Below, in pieces: positions 26,787 through 37,172 of a stretch of 64,000 nt of DNA; position 1 is the stretch's first letter; each line of letters opens with the position of its first letter. The stretch spans positions 256,001 to 320,000 of the forward strand of contig CAVTTN010000002.1 of assembly GCA_963737655.1 (NCBI GenBank), written 5' to 3'. The stretch is from an uncultured Planctomycetota bacterium. Lineage in GTDB: Bacteria > Planctomycetota > Planctomycetia > Isosphaerales > Isosphaeraceae. The notes beneath the pieces were generated by a model. It worked only from the letters and a program-made list of their open reading frames with translations. It was not told the origin of the DNA and made no database searches. The position numbers and the translations under genes were made by a program.

Positions 26787-27563
26787 CCGAACCCCCAACC
26801 GATCCCCCGCCCCAGGGTGACACTCGGGCCATCGACAAGTGCCGGCGCCATCCAGACAAATTTACATGATCGCCCGGAATCGAAACGTCCGCACGCCTCG
26901 CCATCCCTCGCCCGACAACGCAACGACCCACTCCCGGACCCCAGGTCCATGCCCCGACCCAACCCAATAGCCCCCCTCACGGCCCACCTCCGAATCTCGG
27001 AAATCGAAGCCCCAACGACGCCACCCGCACGTACCAAACCATCGAAAGCCACCCCCACCCCCGATCACCCAATCCCCGAGGACGCCCCTCCCCAACGGCC
27101 CCTCGAACGCTCCCCGGACAATCCGCCACTCCCGACGAAAACACGGCGGCGAAGCTCCAAAACCCGATCGGCGCAAGCCGTTCCAGGCTCAACCTTTGCT
27201 CGTCAAATCTCAACTAATTCAAAAATCAACAAACATGGCCTGGCACAAGTGACTGCGCGCTAGAAATCCCTGCAAAAACCGCCCTCCGGCGCGTTTTTCG
27301 GGAAAAAGTGTAGTCAACTTCCGCGAAATTCTCGATCGCACATCTCCATGAGGAATAAAATTTGAGCAATCAAACGAATCAATCAGATTCCGACCCAAAA
27401 ATCCAAAACACCGGCAATCCCCAGCGCGCCAACCGCCCGCAAACCCCACCCCACCCGACTCTCTCCAGCCAATCCCCCGAAAACCCCAGACCACCCAGTC
27501 TCGCAGCACCAGTGACCATTCAGAGAGTCATCGTCGGGGATTGAGGCTCATGTGGCATGCTTG

Positions 27564-27628
27564 CGGTGCATGGCACTGGTGAGCATTTCTGGGTGCCACT
27601 GGTCGTACTCGACCAGTGCCATGCGCCG
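27564..27628. repeat. Nested inverted repeat upstream of the array promoter
   Basis: 27564-27580 matches the reverse complement of 27612-27628 at 16/17; alternative hairpin CACTGGTCG-TACT-CGACCAGTG at 27597-27618. Confidence 0.6.
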
Positions 27629-27674
27629 TCGTTGCAATCGGCGAAGCAACGAGGAGAGAATCCCGAAAAAATCC

Positions 27675-27769
27675 TTGCAAGGCGAACTCCCCGCCGGCAA
27701 AATCAATCACCGGTCCGAGATTATCCATCCGAAACGACGTGATAAACCGCATCATTTCGGACGTATAAT
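27675..27769 (+). promoter_or_regulatory. Candidate cassette promoter(s) Pc
   Basis: TTGCAA(27675)-17 nt-CAAAAT(27698), and a perfect TATAAT at 27764-27769, 45 nt upstream of the first core site and facing the array. Confidence 0.5.
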
Positions 27770-27799
27770 CCCGCAGATTCGGAGATTCTGCGTCACTTT

Positions 27800-27821
27800 C
27801 GATGTCTACTTCATGTTAGGC
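27800..27821 (+). other. attI-like integron recombination site
   Basis: GTTAGGC (GTTRRRY) at 27815-27821 opens the first cassette with no attC palindrome upstream; degenerate inverse box GTCTACT at 27804-27810. Confidence 0.6.
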
Positions 27822-27840
27822 GTCCTGCAAATCGTGGTGC

Positions 27841-27993
27841 CTATAGCGATATCTTTCCGGTCAGGAGCATCCAACTCCGAATCAGGGTCAGGACGAGACA
27901 CGTCAACATCCCCGCCCAGGCCCACCGGAACGTCGGCCGCCACTCCGGCCGTAGTTCTTCCATCGCCCACTGCCGTCTCAGCCAAGCGACCAT
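27841..27993 (-). CDS. 50-aa Trp-rich single-TM peptide, inverted in cassette A (copy 1, 27816-28090)
   Basis: MVAWLRRQWAMEELRPEWRPTFRWAWAGMLTCLVLTLIRSWMLLTGKISL*; fills the cassette; GAGG lies upstream in the attC bottom strand. Confidence 0.45.
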   Translation of the reverse strand: MVAWLRRQWAMEELRPEWRPTFRWAWAGMLTCLVLTLIRSWMLLTGKISL

Positions 27994-27996
27994 GAC

Positions 27997-28096
27997 GCCT
28001 AACCTCGCGCTGCAGCGGACCCGCAACCGCCGCCACGATTGTTGTAGTCTCAACACAACTCAGGCGGGTGCGGGCCGCTGAGCTTGGTCGTTAGGC
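27997..28096 (+). repeat. attC site 1
   Basis: GCCTAAC-5nt-GCTGCAGC...GCTGAGC-6nt-GTTAGGC; R''/L''/L'/R' layout with one extra-helical base. Confidence 0.93.
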
Positions 28097-28754
28097 GGCT
28101 CAGGAGTCGAAGCCTTCGGTCGTGCTCGTCGTCGGCCTCGCCGGTCGCGCCTCGGCTCGACGACGCCATCGGTCGGGCCCCTGGAGTCGGCCTCGGCGGT
28201 GGTGCGCGTCGTCGCCCTCGCCGGCCGCGCCCCCGAGGTCGGGCCCGTCGGCCGGCGCCCCCCTTGCCAACGCCGTCGGTCCGTGCCAGGATCGTCGGTG
28301 TCGGCGCGTGGGGCGTCGCCGGGGCGCCGCCTAACCCGGCGCTGCAGCGGACCCGGCCCGCGGTCGACGATCACTCTCCTCTCAATCTCGCCGGGCGCGG
28401 GCCGGTCCGCTGAGCTTTGTCGTTAGGCGGCTCAGGAGTCGAAGCCTTCGGTCGTGCTCGTCGTCGGCCTCGCCGGTCGCGCCTCGGCTCGACGACGCCA
28501 TCGGTCGGGCCCCTGGAGTCGGCCTCGGCGGTGGTGCGCGTCGTCGCCCTCGCCGGCCGCGCCCCCGAGGTCGGGCCCGTCGGCCGGCGCCCCCCTTGCC
28601 AACGCCGTCGGTCCGTGCCAGGATCGTCGGTGTCGGCGCGTGGGGCGTCGCCGGGGCGCCGCCTAACCCGGCGCTGCAGCGGACCCGGCCCGCGGTCGAC
28701 GATCACTCTCCTCTCAATCTCGCCGGGCGCGGGCCGGTCCGCTGAGCTTTGTCG
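28091..28754 (+). repeat. Cassette B, two identical tandem 332-bp copies, no convincing ORF
   Basis: 28091-28422 equals 28423-28754 by eye, including attC. Confidence 0.88.
28329..28428 (+). repeat. attC site 2
   Basis: GCCTAAC...GCTGCAGCGGACC...GGTCCGCTGAGC...GTTAGGC. Confidence 0.93.
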
Positions 28755-28760
28755 TTAGGC
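28661..28760 (+). repeat. attC site 3 (identical to attC2)
   Basis: Same sequence offset by 332 bp. Confidence 0.93.
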
Positions 28761-29148: not shown

Positions 29149-29167
29149 GTCCTGCAAATCGTGGTGC

Positions 29168-29320
29168 CTATAGCGATATCTTTCCGGTCAGGAGCATCCA
29201 ACTCCGAATCAGGGTCAGGACGAGACACGTCAACATCCCCGCCCAGGCCCACCGGAACGTCGGCCGCCACTCCGGCCGTAGTTCTTCCATCGCCCACTGC
29301 CGTCTCAGCCAAGCGACCAT
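29168..29320 (-). CDS. 50-aa TM peptide, cassette A copy 2 (29143-29417)
   Basis: Identical to copy 1 at offset 1327. Confidence 0.45.
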   Translation of the reverse strand: MVAWLRRQWAMEELRPEWRPTFRWAWAGMLTCLVLTLIRSWMLLTGKISL

Positions 29321-29323
29321 GAC

Positions 29324-29423
29324 GCCTAACCTCGCGCTGCAGCGGACCCGCAACCGCCGCCACGATTGTTGTAGTCTCAACACAACTCAGGCGGGTGCGG
29401 GCCGCTGAGCTTGGTCGTTAGGC
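29324..29423 (+). repeat. attC site 5 (identical to attC1)
   Basis: Same sequence as 27997-28096. Confidence 0.93.
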
Positions 29424-30211: not shown

Positions 30212-30269
30212 AAAATCTAGGAATGCCATTCAGCGTCAGTTCAATTTAGCGGCTCCGGCCGATCCGCCT

Positions 30270-30649
30270 CTTCGTGAACTCTTTGGCTGGGAACGGCCAT
30301 CGACGCGCAACACTACCCCAACCCCAGGCTTTGTGGCCGGGCAGCGGCGAGGTCCGGGTAGCAAACCGACGGATTCAAGAGCGGCGGACGAGGCGCGGGC
30401 CGAGAGGGGAGTCGGTTACGTTTGCAGTCTCTTCGACGGGAACATCCCCGCGAGTCGGCTCGCGGGGCGTCGCCAATGACCGGATCACGACCTCTCGGGC
30501 CAGGCTAACCTACGGGCAGGGAGCACCAAGGTGGAGACGGCCGGGAGGCCCGCGCCACACTCAGGCTACGCCGCGCCGGGTCGGCGGGCAAGTCGTCCCC
30601 GACCCCCGTTCACGCCCCGTCGGGAGCGGACGAAGGCCGCAGGATGGTT
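30270..30649 (-). mobile_element. Non-autonomous IS110 derivative (both ends plus putative bridge RNA, no transposase) inserted in attC6
   Basis: Junctions GCCT|CTTCGTGAACT and GGATGGTT|AACCTTGCGCTGCAGCGG; 30426-30649 homologous to 33762-33985. Confidence 0.8.
30420..30620 (-). ncRNA. Putative bridge RNA, copy in the non-autonomous element
   Basis: Target match CTAACCT 30505-30511; donor match CTCTTCG 30429-30435; boundaries approximate. Confidence 0.6.
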
Positions 30650-30710
30650 AACCTTGCGCTGCAGCGGACCCCGGCCACGGGCCGCGCTTTCTCATTCTCA
30701 CAAGCTCGGA
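30650..30710 (+). repeat. attC6 left-arm remnant (right arm deleted)
   Basis: AACCTTGCGCTGCAGCGGACCCCGGCC, then interrupted by the AAAAGGGGAC element. Confidence 0.75.
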
Positions 30711-30888
30711 GGGTCAAAAAGGGGACGGGAGGGTCAAAAAGGGGACGGAGCGAATAAATTCAGCTTTTTGCATTTTGCCGCGTCTCATCCAGGCCGAACT
30801 TATTCACTCCGTCCCCTTTTCGGCCCCACGTCCCCTTTTCGGCCCCACCGTCCCCTTTTCGGCCCCACTCCGTCCCCTTTTCGGCCCC
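30708..30888. repeat. AAAAGGGGACGGAG inverted-repeat element with tandemly amplified ends
   Basis: ~30-bp imperfect IR; 20-bp unit x2 on the left, CGTCCCCTTTTCGGCCCC x4 on the right. Confidence 0.75.
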
Positions 30889-30889
30889 G

Positions 30890-31599
30890 GCCAAGACGAC
30901 CCGGAGGCGCTGGCGGAATTGGCCAAGGGGCGGCTGCGGGCCAAGATCCCGGCGCTGCGGCTGGCGCTTCGCGGGAAGGTGACCGAGCACCACCGCTTCC
31001 TGCTGCGGCTCCTGCTGGACCACTACGAGGCGCCGGAGGCCCTGATCGGCCGACTGGGGAGCGGATCGACCGGGTGCTGGCGCCGTACGCCGAGGCGGTG
31101 GAGCGGCTGGAGACGATCCCCGGGGTCGGCCGCCGGGTCGCCGAGATCGTCGTCGCGGAGCTGGGCGTGGAGATGGGGCAGTTCCCGACGGCTCGCCACC
31201 TGGCGAGCCGGGCCGGGATGTGCCCCGGGAACAACGAGAGCGCCGGCAAGCGCCGCAGCGGCAAGACGACCAAGGGGAGCCGCTGGCTACGGACGGCCCT
31301 GATCCAGGCGGCGCACGCGGCGGGCCGGAGCAAGGCGACGTATCTGGGGTCGGGGTACCGTCGGCTGGCATCGCGGCGCGGGGCGAAGCGAGCGGCGGTG
31401 GCGGTGGGCCATACGCTGCTGGGGATCATCTACGAAGTCCTGGGCCGGGGGACGACCTACGAGGATCTAGGCCCCTGCTACCTGGAGCGGTTGGAGCCCG
31501 AGCGATTGACCCGGCAACTGGTCAGGCGCTTGGAACGGCTCGGCCACAAGGTTACATTGGAACCCAACGAGGCGGCCGCGTAGGGCGCATTTTCAGAAC
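30890..31599 (+). pseudogene. 5'-truncated, frameshifted IS110 transposase (second lineage) with its 3' end
   Basis: TIPGVG, FPTARHLAS.AGMCPGNNESAGKR, LERLGHKVTL; TAG 31583; end ATTTTCAGAAC|AGGC. Confidence 0.88.
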
Positions 31600-31618: not shown

Positions 31619-32191
31619 ATGGCGAAGGCTCGTGTATCGGACGTCTTCTCCGCGTATCGCCTCTCCGGCGAGCCTATTCCCGGCGATGTCGCGATCCTCC
31701 TGAAACAAGCGGAGGAACTGGCCGAGCGCTCGGGGATCGAGCTGAACTGGAAGAAGGTCTGGTCCCCATGGTCCGATACGAGCTATCTCACCAAGTCGGA
31801 CCGCCAGAACCCAGATACCATGGCCAACGTCCGGGCGATTGCGGATGTGTGCAAACTGGTCGCATTCGTCGCCGCGACCGACGAGGATGAGTGCATCGGC
31901 TACTGGCGAGGTCCGCGCATGCGTCCGGTCAAGAACTCCCCACTCGTCCTCTTCGACAACGAGGGGCAATTCACGCTATGCGGCTCCAGTTTCACCGAGG
32001 CCGTCTTGTATCAGGCCCCCGACGAGGAAGGATTCGCCGAGTTGAGGGATTGGTTCCGCTCACTCGGCATTGAGGTGCAAGCGGAGAGCATCGAGGATCT
32101 CGCGTGCAACACAGATGACCCTGCCCCCGACAAGCTGCACCACGAATTATACGAGCGATACCTGGGCCTGACGCCCGGCGCCTCCCCGTGA
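31619..32191 (+). CDS. Cassette protein, SUKH/SMI1-KNR4-like immunity-type (tentative)
   Basis: GGAGG RBS; IGYW...PLVLFDNEGQ; stop supplied by the IS end. Confidence 0.55.
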   Translation: MAKARVSDVFSAYRLSGEPIPGDVAILLKQAEELAERSGIELNWKKVWSPWSDTSYLTKSDRQNPDTMANVRAIADVCKLVAFVAATDEDECIGYWRGPRMRPVKNSPLVLFDNEGQFTLCGSSFTEAVLYQAPDEEGFAELRDWFRSLGIEVQAESIEDLACNTDDPAPDKLHHELYERYLGLTPGASP

Positions 32192-32343
32192 ACTCTTCGC
32201 GCCGGCGGTTCGGCATCGGTTGATACTATGTGGGCGTGATCATCGATCGGCCCGCATCCCCCCCGGCCCCCGCGACGACGGGGACGGCCCGATCCGGCTC
32301 GGCGGGGCTTGCGGCCGGGCGCCCCGCCTCCGACCCGTCGCCC

Positions 32344-33696
32344 TCACGACGGCGGCGACGGCGGCGACTTCGCCACCAGCTCGTAGCCCAGCGACCTCGC
32401 CTTGCGCCGCAGCGAACGCTCCTGCTTCCGCCTCACCTCCGCCTCGTACTCCGCCAGCGACCTCGACACGTACTCCTCGCCGTGCCTGAGCAGCCGGTAC
32501 ACCAGCCGCGACAGCTTGTGCGCCGTCGCCGTGATCGCCCCCCGGCCGCCGATCCGGCCCTTGATCCGCCGGTAGAACTGGCCCGTCGCCGTCGCCGTCC
32601 GGCCCGCCGCCTGCGCCGCCATCCGCAGCGCCTGACCCACCCGGTTCTTGCCCTTGCGGGGCGTGCGACGCCGCTCGGTCTTGTTGCTCCGGTCGGTCCG
32701 CGGGCAGAGGCCCAGCCAGCTGGCGAAGTGCTTCTCGCTCGGGAACCGCCCCACGTCGCCGCCGAGCTCGGCCAGGATCACCGTCGCCGTCGTCGCGTCG
32801 ATCCCCTCGATGGCCGTCAGGTCCACGCCCATCGCCCGGGCCAGCTTGGCCGGGGCGTCGAACCGCACGTCGTTGGCCTTGCGGCCGCGACGCCGCGGCC
32901 TCGGGGCGACCGGCTCGCCCCCGGAGCGGTCGGGCAGGCGGTCCAGCTCCTCGGCGATCCGGGCGTCGCACTCGTCGACCTGGCGGTGGAGGTAGTGGTA
33001 CAGGTCGGACGCCTGCTTCAGGGCGAACAGGTGCTCGGGCCGCCAGGTGCCCTCCAGGGCCCGGGCGATCTCCGCCTCGTCCCGGGCGCACTGCTCGTGC
33101 CGCAGCGCGGCCAGCTTCGCCGGGTGGCGCTCGCCGGCGAGGATGGCGGCGATGATCGCCGTGCCGGTGACGCCCGTGATGCTGCTGACGACCTCGGTCA
33201 GCTTCACATTCATCTGCTCCAAAGCCTTCTGCATGTGCTGGACGTGGTGCGAGGCGTACCGCACGAGCATCTGCCGCTGCCGCCAGTAGCCGCGCAGGGC
33301 CAGGACGGCCCCGGGCGGGCGGAAGGACGGGCGGAGCAGGCCGCAGGCGTGGAGGCGCTGGAGCCACTGGCAGTCGAGCCGGTCGGTCTTGGGCCGGGCG
33401 CCGCAGTGGCTGGCCTGGCTCGGCTCGATGAGGAAGACCTCGAAGCCGCGCGATTCGAGCAGCTCGAACAGGGGGATCCAGTAGACGCCGGTGGACTCCA
33501 GGACCACCGAGGTGACGCCCTCGGCCCGGAACCAATCGGCCAGGGCGTGGAGGTCGGCCGAGCAGGCGCCGAAGGTGCGGACCCGTCCGGGCCCGACGCA
33601 GGCGACGTGGTTGTCGGAGTGGACGTCGACGGCGGCGGCGTGGGGGTGGACGACCGGCAGGGACGCGTCGGGATCGGGGGGCGTGCGGCGACTCAT
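32344..33696 (-). CDS. IS110 DEDD recombinase/transposase, 450 aa
   Basis: AVDVH, LESTGVYW, KTDRLD (DEDD); IEGID, FPSEKHFASWLGLCP....S. Confidence 0.95.
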   Translation of the reverse strand: MSRRTPPDPDASLPVVHPHAAAVDVHSDNHVACVGPGRVRTFGACSADLHALADWFRAEGVTSVVLESTGVYWIPLFELLESRGFEVFLIEPSQASHCGARPKTDRLDCQWLQRLHACGLLRPSFRPPGAVLALRGYWRQRQMLVRYASHHVQHMQKALEQMNVKLTEVVSSITGVTGTAIIAAILAGERHPAKLAALRHEQCARDEAEIARALEGTWRPEHLFALKQASDLYHYLHRQVDECDARIAEELDRLPDRSGGEPVAPRPRRRGRKANDVRFDAPAKLARAMGVDLTAIEGIDATTATVILAELGGDVGRFPSEKHFASWLGLCPRTDRSNKTERRRTPRKGKNRVGQALRMAAQAAGRTATATGQFYRRIKGRIGGRGAITATAHKLSRLVYRLLRHGEEYVSRSLAEYEAEVRRKQERSLRRKARSLGYELVAKSPPSPPS

Positions 33697-33749
33697 GGCG
33701 AGGGCTCCGGCGGGTGGGGGGCCAAGCCGTCGCGGGCCGAGAGGGGGTC

Positions 33750-33960
33750 CGGGGACGAGGTAGTCTCCCCGACGGGAACGTCGCGGGGCCGTGTTGACAC
33801 GGCGCCGCGGGTCACCAATGATGGGGCCACGGCCTCTCGGGCCATGCTAACCTGCGGGCGGCGAGCACCAGGGAGATGACGGCCGGGAGGCCCGCGACGG
33901 CGTGCCCCAGCGTATCGCGCCCGGTGGTCGGGGCCACCCCCGGTTCACGTCCGTCGGGGA
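33750..33960 (-). ncRNA. Putative bridge RNA in the upstream non-coding end
   Basis: Target match CTAACCT 33847-33853; donor match CTCCCCG 33765-33771; conserved stems; boundaries approximate. Confidence 0.65.
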
Positions 33961-33985
33961 GCGGTCGGAGACGGCGCGGAGAGTT

Positions 33986-34080
33986 AACCTCGCGCTGCAG
34001 CGGACCCGGCCCGCAGCGGCGACTTCCGCGTTACCGTCGTCTGCCCGGCGGTGCGGGTCCGCTGAGCTTCGTCGTTAGGC
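33986..34080 (+). repeat. attC7 (R'' split by IS110)
   Basis: AACCTCGCGCTGCAGCGGACCCG...CGGGTCCGCTGAGCTTCGTCGTTAGGC. Confidence 0.9.
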
Positions 34081-34420: not shown

Positions 34421-34843
34421 ATGAATGACGAAGACACGCGGGTCTTGTTCGAGGAGCCGCAGATCCTGGCGGTGGCTATCTTCGTCGCCCTGCTCGTGGT
34501 CGCGATCCTCATGATCCCCTGCTTCTACATTTCCCGTCGCCGGGAGACGAGGGTCCTGGCGGGCGTCGGTGCCTCCATGTTCGCGATCGCGGCGGTCGTT
34601 TATGGAGACCTGGCGTTCACTCGCTGGGCACTTTACGATGGCGGCCATGGTCGCTCCCCCGGGACGGCCCCGTTAAAGGATTGGCTTGTATTCGCGGCAA
34701 TCAATGCGGTCCTGGCGATCGTGGGCTCAATTCCTGGCGGGGTGCTGGGCTTGGCCATCGGGTTGCTGATCGAGCGAAGGCACCGAAGACGAACCGGAGC
34801 GAACAAGTCGCCGATCGAGCCGTCGGACGCCGCCTCCCCGTGA
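34421..34843 (+). CDS. Cassette three-TM membrane protein
   Basis: GGAGG RBS; ends GCC TCC CCG TGA within an IS end. Confidence 0.7.
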   Translation: MNDEDTRVLFEEPQILAVAIFVALLVVAILMIPCFYISRRRETRVLAGVGASMFAIAAVVYGDLAFTRWALYDGGHGRSPGTAPLKDWLVFAAINAVLAIVGSIPGGVLGLAIGLLIERRHRRRTGANKSPIEPSDAASP

Positions 34844-35190: not shown

Positions 35191-35322
35191 GGCGAGGAAA
35201 AGGGGACGGGGCGAGGAAAAGGGGACGGGCGAGGAAAAGGGGACGGAGCGGAATGCCACGAAGTTAGTGGTAAATCCCGAACTGGAGAAGGGGACGGAGA
35301 ACTGGAGAAGGGGACGGAGGGA
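35190..35322. repeat. Tandem AAGGGGAC end repeats
   Basis: GGGCGAGGAAAAGGGGAC x3; GAACTGGAGAAGGGGACGGA x2. Confidence 0.75.
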
Positions 35323-35559: not shown

Positions 35560-36321
35560 ATGGCGAGCACCCAACGCACGATTGTTGAGGCGGAAGTCAA
35601 GAAGCCGTCTCCGGACTGGACCGCGGCGATCGACAACCTGAATGCCCTGACCATGGTCGAGATGCTTCCCACCCTCGCCGGCCTGGCTCCATCGATCCGC
35701 AAAGAGGTGGTGAGCCAGGCCTGGAAGCTGCTCTCCGTCCAGCGCGGCTGGAAGGACTGCTACGAACGCATCGAGTTCGCGGCCGAGGTGGTCACGGAAC
35801 AGAAATTCAAGCAAGACGACACCAGGGCCCCCGCCGGCCAGATTCAGGACGCGACCAACTTCCTGGTCGCCCTCCTGAAACCGGCGAAGAGTCAGGCGGT
35901 GCAGGTCGGCTTCACCTCCGCAGATGACGCAGCGATCGCCGCCCTGCAGGAGATCATCCCGACGACGATAGCCGTCGGGCTAGAATTCGCCGGCAGCATC
36001 TTTTCACGGTCGGGCTCCTTCCGGTTCACCGCGCCGAAGCAGGGCGAGGCGACCGCGTCCGACTCGAACGTCCCCGTGCCGACGGGGACCGGGGCCGTGG
36101 GGTCGTATCACACCCACCCGGAGACAACGCGCAACTCCGAGAACTTTTCGCCACAAGACATGATGATCTGCCGTGGAAATGAGCAAATTCATCTGCCACC
36201 GCGCGTGTTCTACCTCGGCACCCCCAGCGGGAAGATCAAGAGGTTGATCCCGCCGGCCCTGCTCACCGGCCAGGACAAGGAGAATTTCGGCCTGCTTGGC
36301 AAGCTCACGATCCTTCGGTAG
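35560..36321 (+). CDS. Cassette protein with C-terminal JAB/DUF4329-like domain
   Basis: F.SADDAA.AAL...EFAG.I...YHTHP...FS..D (E-HxH-S-D JAMM pattern). Confidence 0.7.
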   Translation: MASTQRTIVEAEVKKPSPDWTAAIDNLNALTMVEMLPTLAGLAPSIRKEVVSQAWKLLSVQRGWKDCYERIEFAAEVVTEQKFKQDDTRAPAGQIQDATNFLVALLKPAKSQAVQVGFTSADDAAIAALQEIIPTTIAVGLEFAGSIFSRSGSFRFTAPKQGEATASDSNVPVPTGTGAVGSYHTHPETTRNSENFSPQDMMICRGNEQIHLPPRVFYLGTPSGKIKRLIPPALLTGQDKENFGLLGKLTILR

Positions 36322-36914: not shown

Positions 36915-37004
36915 ACGAGTCTGGCCCGGGCGGCCGAATCCTCGCGGATCGTCCCTGCGACCGTTACGGCGGGGCTTGACATGGTCGGTTGGGCCGGGGA
37001 AGGA

Positions 37005-37172
37005 AAGGGGACATTCTTGCTCTGTAGAAAACCCGGTTCGCAGAGGTTTATCGAGTCGGTCCGACTTCGGTCGGGCCTACAAAAAGGCCTTATTTTGCAG
37101 GCCCGACCGAAGTCGGACCGACTCGATTCCTGACTCACACCGGGGTTTTCTACAGAGCAAGAACGTCCCCTT
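37005..37172. repeat. 168-bp palindromic REPIN/MITE-like element
   Basis: AAGGGGACATTCTTGCTCTGTAGAAAACCC ... GGGTTTTCTACAGAGCAAGAACGTCCCCTT. Confidence 0.8.

Follow-up and report, generated by a model that had tools for sequence, protein, structure and literature searches.

A predicted RNA-guided IS110-group recombinase addressed to integron attC sites, and a transposase-less element with a predicted guide RNA of its own, in an uncultured planctomycete

Integron attC sites of an uncultured Planctomycetota bacterium are very probably the target of a bridge recombinase of the IS110 group. The stretch of DNA analyzed (the window; 64,000 nucleotides, positions 256,001 to 320,000 of contig CAVTTN010000002.1, assembly GCA_963737655.1) contains an autonomous element on the minus strand (32182-33985), called the resident element here, whose upstream non-coding end harbors a predicted bridge RNA with one guide for attC and another for the element's own terminus. 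The initial annotation of this DNA had already proposed an attC-targeting RNA-guided recombinase with an upstream guide region, and the covariation of the guides among homologous sequences supports this proposal; RNA-guided targeting of attC as such is established for ISKpn4 and ISPst6 (PMC11187229). The annotation was incomplete in that it overlooked a 382-bp transposase-less, guide-only element (the passenger), of which the present genome (G000) possesses 28 copies, one of them 1.5 kb away from the resident element. There are good grounds to regard the whole mechanism, passenger included, as that of an IS110 bridge recombinase system similar to ISPpu9.

The resident element comprises 1802 bp with one junction dinucleotide, as annotated, and 1804 bp with both (CT at 32182-32183, TT at 33984-33985). 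It splits an attC at GCCT^AAC, which had been counted as the seventh site of the window; this number is correct only if a truncated attC at 30650 is included. Six full and two internally deleted copies are present in G000, and all eight lie in attC in a single orientation, at one base of the R'' box, with the junctions GC-CT-CCCCG...GAG-TT-AACC. The recombinase gene (32344-33696, minus strand) is intact, as had been claimed, and its open reading frame encodes 450 amino acids that match PF01548 and PF02371 and score above the cut-off of NF033542. Residues E67, D105, D108 and S337 align with the catalytic residues of IS621, and D24 is located in the first motif. The protein combines a DEDD RuvC domain with a Tnp domain containing the catalytic serine, which is characteristic of the IS110 family; the serine motif reads GLCP....SN where SG is expected. 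The family is further characterized by a single target site, a single orientation and the lack of a target duplication. All 36 copies of the scaffold in G000 are inserted at one base of attC in one orientation, and a filled and an empty version of one cassette, found elsewhere in G000 for the 382-bp element, revealed GCCT AACCT as the unoccupied site and no duplication. The non-coding end upstream of the gene measures 289 bp (33697-33985), again as annotated, the downstream one approximately 160 bp. The 16-bp downstream terminus (32182-32197, minus strand), the equivalent of a B box, ends in the donor-guide match. A conserved subterminal hexamer of the left end (33943-33948, plus strand) recurs inverted as GTGAAC at 32188-32193. 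A 14-bp repeat with one mismatch (32191-32204 and 33972-33985, offsets 7 and 0) is absent from the passenger and from most relatives.

Two 7-mers of the upstream end had been suggested as guides, CTAACCT (33847-33853) and CTCCCCG (33765-33771), the latter recurring at 32182-32188. Their positions were confirmed, and each of them adjoins an RCGGG motif. Read on the minus strand, they constitute a target guide AGGTTAG and a donor guide CGGGGAG, each on the 3' side of its loop, and both words together occurred in only 0.14% of 20,000 shuffles of the upstream end. The annotation had made its proposal depend on covariation of these words across homologues, which was indeed found: the target 7-mer follows the insertion site and the donor 7-mer follows the element end. 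The sample combined 79 loci from genomes with 80 from metagenomes, drawn from the best 80 of 213 and the best 80 of 519 relatives, respectively, and further loci from relatives were added; the left end was located by motifs independent of the guide, and one element was taken per distinct guide. Among 43 distinct guides, 27 matched the flank at five of five positions and a further ten at four of five, with five of the 43 rows being contig-end artefacts that were counted as misses. Shuffled pairings of guides and flanks gave a mean of 0.73 perfect matches and a maximum of five in 10,000 trials. The donor 7-mer agreed with the downstream end at six of six positions in 52 of the 68 loci in which both were found, and several of the misses listed have mis-anchored guides. 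Donor guides are less variable, but CGGGGAG, TGGGGAG, TTGGAAG, TTAGAAG, TTAGTAG and TTGCAAC each track their own end; in one of the two comparisons, the end had been picked by its likeness to the guide. A structured non-coding end whose guides covary with target and donor is a further property of the IS110 family. The statement that only one guide half per loop can be recognized holds for the donor loop. For the target loop, a weak second half on its 5' side (33870-33879, minus strand) was detected at the level of the family, where it agrees with the other flank in 20, 22 and 22 of 41 sequences against 10 to 11 expected (diagonal z 3.3, 4.3 and 3.9); another register, one base off, appeared in the same 41 sequences. 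The target guide is followed by a putative handshake dinucleotide (33845-33846, minus strand), of which only the first base matches in the resident copy. The second base equals base +2 of the left end in 40 of 77 cases compared to 19.7 after shuffling. Three other resident copies (G000:C2:1974591-1974872, 6780326-6780607 and 6786091-6786372) have an upstream end that is 18 bp shorter, resulting in a total of 1786 bp, and their target guide is followed by CT rather than CA, a change by which the handshake match is restored.

The bridge RNA is predicted to extend over about 176 nt (33726-33901, minus strand), with a target loop followed by a donor loop and a 13-bp stem closing the 5' and 3' ends. 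The region 33724-33905 folds with a z score of -3.98, and the upstream ends of the fetched homologues have one scaffold in common. As RNAalifold yielded a poor consensus on a gappy alignment of 55 rows, the structure was assembled manually on the basis of individual folds, and its pairs were then counted. This structure (closing stem, target-loop stem with hairpin, donor-arm stems), which leans towards the sequences whose single folds defined it, was paired in 95.3% of the cells in 41 homologues and showed double changes at 19 of 36 pairs, while controls slid along the alignment were paired in 42 to 48%. By contrast, a GGCCTC/GAGGCC stem proposed around the target match did not stand: the letters are present, but pairing amounted to 81.6% in these homologues and to 83.5% in shuffled columns. 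A putative -10 box of an internal promoter, TACGCT (33909-33914, minus strand), is situated ahead of the closing stem; a TAnnnT box occupies this position in 46 of 52 homologues compared to 12.3 after shuffling. According to this box, the RNA is predicted to begin roughly 85 nt away from the left end. The RNA was assigned to the minus strand on account of this conserved box, the closing stem and the polarity of the guides, whose 3' end carries the core, and transcription from the plus strand was ruled out on the same grounds. No canonical promoter spanning the predicted circle junction was evident by eye. A putative antisense promoter, TTGACA-17-AATGAT, lies within the bridge RNA (33794-33822, plus strand) and is directed outwards at attC and the next cassette. 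Its motif is present in five of the seven autonomous close relatives shown, a sixth having TTGACG, and in neither of the two 382-bp elements shown. In a scan of the window against Rfam, no family reached its gathering score.

The annotation had left open whether the core is a single nucleotide or mismatched. A mismatched dinucleotide, CT in the target and TT in the donor, is favored by the data. All 36 insertions have CT on the left and TT on the right, which is the product expected if one strand is exchanged. In 84 homologous loci for which both junctions were available, a count that includes multi-copy elements, 38 junctions were asymmetric (AA/AG), 23 were AG/AG, 14 AA/AA, one was reverse and eight were of other types; the dinucleotide of the donor loop covaries with the left junction (z 3.5). 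In transposase sense, the complement of the top strand precedes the match to the bottom strand. The comparisons with published systems made here and below refer to excerpts of the cited papers. According to these, IS621 cuts the top strand 3' of CT, and its bottom strand was noted as unligated (PMC11208160, PMC11208158), while CazIS110 inserts mainly via the top strand. If the plus strand of the window is taken as the counterpart of the IS621 top strand, the CT core with its fixed second T, a cut 3' of it and the handshake-like bases would fit IS621, and the asymmetry of the junctions would agree with the top-strand insertion of CazIS110 and the unligated bottom strand of IS621. The built-in mismatch of the core might then serve as a natural readout of one-strand versus two-strand exchange in IS110 insertion, which is an open question.

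From these data, the following mechanism is proposed. The internal promoter would generate the RNA from the upstream end, and this RNA would load the recombinase. Judging from the covariation, the 7-nt target guide would read the CT core together with AACCT of the attC R'' box, and the 7-nt donor guide the downstream end of the element itself; the left end is probably read mostly by the protein. The plus strand of the window, opposite to the transposase gene, would act as top strand and be cut after the core both in the target (CT) and in the circular donor (TT) before being exchanged. The other strand may be copied or repaired from the exchanged one, with CT at one junction and TT at the opposite one as the result. 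Such a recombinase would be programmable through guides of 7 nt, with the RNA under an internal promoter.

The interrupted sites were recognized as integron attC by their hairpin folds, by the complementarity of R'' and R' and by their position downstream of attI-like sites. In the window, an attI-like site (27800-27822, plus strand) heads the cassette array. The site split by the resident element continues as AAC...GTTAGGC at 33986-34080 (plus strand), its GCCT part having been left at 32180-32183, and the interrupted hairpin retains four of seven R-box pairs. A scan for attC arms yielded 71 rows, three of which are opposite-strand or doubtful matches. Sites with AACCT were filled in 36 of 54 cases, while sites with AACCC, which have one mismatch to the guide, were filled in none of 13 (by attC cluster 34 of 48 versus 0 of 4, p=0.011). 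The AACCC-type attC belongs to a repeated short cassette. GC precedes 34 of the 36 filled sites, which is poorly accounted for by the RNA. Although GTTAGGC recurs at the R' end, the bases in front of it are different there, and this end is not used. In G000, 36 of about 68 attC sites are occupied, and the insertions may bear on the expression and excision of cassettes. In a quick tree of 102 rows, including two long frameshifted ones, the resident protein fell into a clade of eight rows (SH-aLRT 100), all with the guide AGGTTAG. Of its other members, L080, L083, L085 and L197 are inserted in attC and L180 outside attC; L001 and L002 are cut by contig ends. L188 and L202, which are about 61% identical and have another type of scaffold, were not among these 102 rows; they also reside in attC, which would make a second origin of attC targeting likely. 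Four further relatives (L078, L079, L138 and L150) carry the guides TTGTTAG or ATGTTAG and are inserted at GTTAG-GC; it is possible that they target the R' end of attC or attI. Named relatives include Planctomycetota bins.

The passenger copy of the window is located at 30268-30649 (minus strand), at the same base of another attC. The 28 copies fall into ten variants, 15 copies being identical, and each copy is inserted at this base. A transposase was not found in the element, whose longest stop-free frame comprises 127 codons on the opposite strand. With its shared ends, the lack of a transposase and many copies at independent sites, it has the features of a miniature inverted-repeat transposable element (MITE) or non-autonomous insertion sequence. 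It retains the left end, the -10 box and the whole scaffold (fold z -3.59). Its predicted bridge RNA (30392-30558, minus strand) contains the same target guide as the resident RNA (30505-30511), but another donor guide, CGAAGAG (30429-30435), which matches the passenger's own end (30268-30274). The element is about 75% identical to the upstream end of the resident element and shows little likeness to it beyond 16 bp at the other end. A related genome, G480, carries the same passenger with 83% identity, likewise in attC sites. Between both genomes, 18 of 167 positions of the bridge RNA differ, while promoter and filler together differ at 44 of 155 (p=7e-5). In G480 and in every one of the ten variants, the donor guide agrees with the passenger's own end at the two positions that have changed. 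With both ends, the promoter and a complete bridge RNA bearing its own donor address preserved, the passenger would be expected to move if a borrowed recombinase were loaded with this RNA. Judging from the gene content, the passenger is probably moved in trans by the resident recombinase. Transposase-less derivatives in which the left end, the bridge RNA and the downstream end are kept also occur in another subclade (L188, L190 and L201), and short non-autonomous forms seem to be recurrent in the clade.

Taken together, the passenger can be understood as a guide-RNA-only parasite that transcribes its own bridge RNA, loads the resident recombinase with it and readdresses the enzyme to its own ends. 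It would belong to a large IS110 clade in which the recombination geometry is inverted with respect to the gene and a natural core mismatch records the exchanged strand; this clade would have arrived at attC separately from the IS1111-attC elements, perhaps on more than one occasion. For this reading as a whole, the case for and the case against appear evenly balanced. If it were true, the resident RNA could read the passenger end by G-T wobble, while the passenger RNA would meet A-C mismatches on the resident end, and such a one-sided exchange of guides would explain the excess of the passenger over its helper, 28 to 8. Bridge RNAs might then travel without an enzyme and compete for it. It is conceivable, though unlikely, that the resident element works as proposed but the passenger is an ordinary MITE moved by the resident RNA, and that the RNA encoded by the passenger is a relic or has a regulatory function, for instance as a sponge for antisense RNA as proposed for Ssr9. 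The GG of the resident guide opposite the AA of the passenger end requires only two G-T wobbles, Ssr9 binds Asr9 and is dispensable for transposition of ISPpu9 (PMC12288879, PMC8450116), and the motif of the antisense promoter is present in the resident element and absent from the passenger. The fit of the passenger's donor guide to its own end in 10 of 10 variants and in G480, and a scaffold that is entirely more conserved than the flanking DNA, contradict this explanation. Even less convincing is the assumption that the passenger was spread by a cognate transposase of its own, now lost or unassembled, with the resident enzyme having no part in it. This would account for the limited identity to the resident upstream end and the missing likeness beyond the 16 bp, and a broken autonomous copy in G482 with a TGAAGAG end may mean that the address of the passenger was inherited from a lost relative; the assembly is 87.7% complete by markers, so that a cognate gene could be missing. 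However, the 15 identical copies imply recent movement, the one 7.6-Mb contig and the two small contigs of the assembly encode no other close transposase besides that of the resident element, and both G000 and G480 have the passenger beside elements ending in CGGGGAG.

Several of these points, namely the wobble pairing, the incomplete assembly and the G482 copy, count against the role proposed for the passenger, and further observations weigh against the proposed mechanism in general. The homologues are kin, and the shuffle statistics overstate the covariation accordingly; for the handshake, even a control offset exceeded its null (29 versus 18.7), so that this signal is partly due to kinship. 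The second target half barely pairs in the resident element, and in 72 sequences no diagonal for a second donor half was visible against the left end, beyond the core. Besides, 18 of the 54 matching attC sites are empty, and none of 37 genomic CTAACCT words outside attC was used, only six of which carry the preceding GC. The last finding could mean that the selection of attC depends mainly on hairpin structure or single-stranded exposure, the 7-mer setting no more than the register; relatives are often located in palindromic repeats. As the principal determinant this is doubtful, since the AACCC sites have the same hairpin and are nevertheless empty, the AGGTTAG guide also occurs at non-attC sites (L100, L117, L121 and L180) and a 9-nt sequence nearly accounts for the choice of site. 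As a contributing factor, structure is compatible with the RNA-guided mechanism. Concerning the core, one base or a blunt exchange with both strands swapped is an improbable substitute for the mismatched dinucleotide. A single shared T would also fit all 36 junctions, but a core of two bases is covered by either guide, its second base is followed by the dinucleotide of the donor loop, the 23 relatives with a perfect AG/AG core share the same scaffold, and the crossover of ISPpu9 takes place at AG (PMC12288879).

The closest described system is ISPpu9 of P. putida with MITEPpu9 and its RNA Ssr9 (PMC12288879, PMC8450116). Both systems have a long non-coding end upstream of the transposase gene and an IS110-group protein of approximately 440 to 450 amino acids, within the 395 to 455 of the ISPpu9 group, that is co-linear by eye and contains the motifs ESTGVYWIP, LDCQW, MQKA..QMN, WR.EHL and GVDLTAI. 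They also have in common a 43-bp left (A) box, a 16-bp right (B) box, an AG crossover, internal and antisense promoters, putative in the resident element, and an RNA start about 85 nt from the end, which was measured for ISPpu9 and predicted here; the left junction of the resident element is AA where the ISPpu9-like plan has AG. Differences are the target, attC instead of repetitive extragenic palindromic (REP) sequences, and the mismatched core. An RNA-bearing MITE is found in both, the right box of MITEPpu9 differing only within its last 7 nt. Unlike MITEPpu9, the passenger is considerably diverged from the resident upstream end and outnumbers its autonomous partner. In the excerpts, no guides are mapped for ISPpu9 or Ssr9, and Ssr9 is treated as a regulator or hitchhiker. 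A motif scan of viral contigs for ISPpu9 yielded no match, and no Pseudomonas entry appeared among the 90 rows listed of 384 and 202 plasmid records. According to Tables S1 and S2 of the supplement of PMC12288879, differences between the B and B' boxes are confined to the last 7 nt, where the donor-guide match was mapped in the present study, and an ssr9 primer contains CCCGA-ATGAGAG, which fits B and not B'. The A'-B circle was reported to be about 1800-fold more abundant (PMC12288879). The primers suggest that Ssr9 is a bridge RNA addressed to B.

The elements of the IS1111-attC type (ISKpn4, ISPst6, ISPa25 and ISPa21; PMC11187229) are also RNA-guided DEDD recombinases acting at one end of attC. 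As annotated, the target match precedes the donor match in the resident RNA; if the RNA is read in the direction of the transposase gene, its matches to the top and the bottom strand follow each other as in the IS1111 seekRNAs and not as in the IS621 type the annotation had assumed. The subterminal inverted repeats of IS1111-attC elements measure 11 to 13 bp and have extensions of 7 and 3 bp (PMC11187229); the resident element has the 14-bp repeat at offsets 7 and 0 described above. However, the RNA of IS1111-attC elements lies downstream of the transposase gene, their proteins have 330 to 350 residues, and those of ISKpn4 and ISPa25 differ by eye from the resident one. With its upstream RNA and different protein, the resident element is thus a member of the IS110 group and not of IS1111-attC, and the separate lineage suspected in the annotation appears justified by an ISPpu9-like protein and ends. 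A second RNA-guided lineage seems to have reached attC. With IS621 (PMC11208160, PMC11208158), the resident element shares the upstream RNA, the target loop followed by the donor loop, the CT-type core with an invariant second T, the handshake-like bases after the guide and the aligned catalytic residues. By contrast, it has a geometry that is inverted with respect to the transposase gene, its strong guides are the 7-mers on the 3' side of the loops, a second donor half was not detected, and the putative promoter is located internally and does not arise by joining of the ends in the circle. Similarly placed are the group IIC-attC introns (PMC3001079), which are inserted into the bottom strand of attC, between the gene and its site and against the direction of cassette transcription. 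They also have an outward promoter, but use retroelement chemistry without a DNA recombinase or bridge RNA. In the literature searched, mainly open-access, no description of this attC lineage or of a separately addressed guide-only element was found, nor of a mapped RNA for the large IS110 clade concerned, which comprises at least about 8,000 proteins at E < 1e-50 among the matches listed and for which guides have now been mapped.

Some further features of the integron regions deserve mention. The 3' half of a distant second IS110 element (34% identical) lies at 30889-31598 (plus strand) of the window. Its full copy (G000:C2:4847050-4848545) has a similar target-loop scaffold with the guide GTGTTAG and lies in an attI-like site at GTTAG-GC, oriented the other way; a word in its leader, CAGAACAG, matches its own end. 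Thus, two IS110 lineages target integron core sites in G000. Lone, diverged downstream ends (GCCT-CCYCGTGAAC) follow cassette-like sequence at 34834, 35157, 36905 and 37672 of the window, at G000:C2:1118573 and 5893733 and in L245. No partner scaffold was found for these ends, which are either old remnants or one-junction events. The passenger pairs G000:C2:1678864/1976600, 1679756/1977492 and 1673103/6786653 have in common the attC without the upstream gene, the gene without attC, or both; cassettes may have been shuffled by homologous recombination between the copies, or arrays may have been duplicated. The only integrase of G000 above the TIGR02249 cut-off is encoded beside another array (G000:C2:6777135-6778073), and attI-like regions head arrays far from it (window 27500-27830; G000:C2:1672760, 1969515, 5884730, 1121649, 5881623 and 5876295). 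Runs of AAAAGGGGAC(G) and long palindromic repeats interrupt the array of the window at 30712-30890, 35195-35320 and 36990-37170 and truncate the attC at 30650; the AAAAGGGGAC repeats may be REP-like or represent assembly noise. Five of the cassette reading frames scanned had no match in Pfam, while the product of a sixth (35560-36321, plus strand) contains a DUF4329 domain. Short promoterless or non-coding cassettes are present as exact tandem or dispersed duplicates (28095-28760, and 27822-28090 with 29149-29420).

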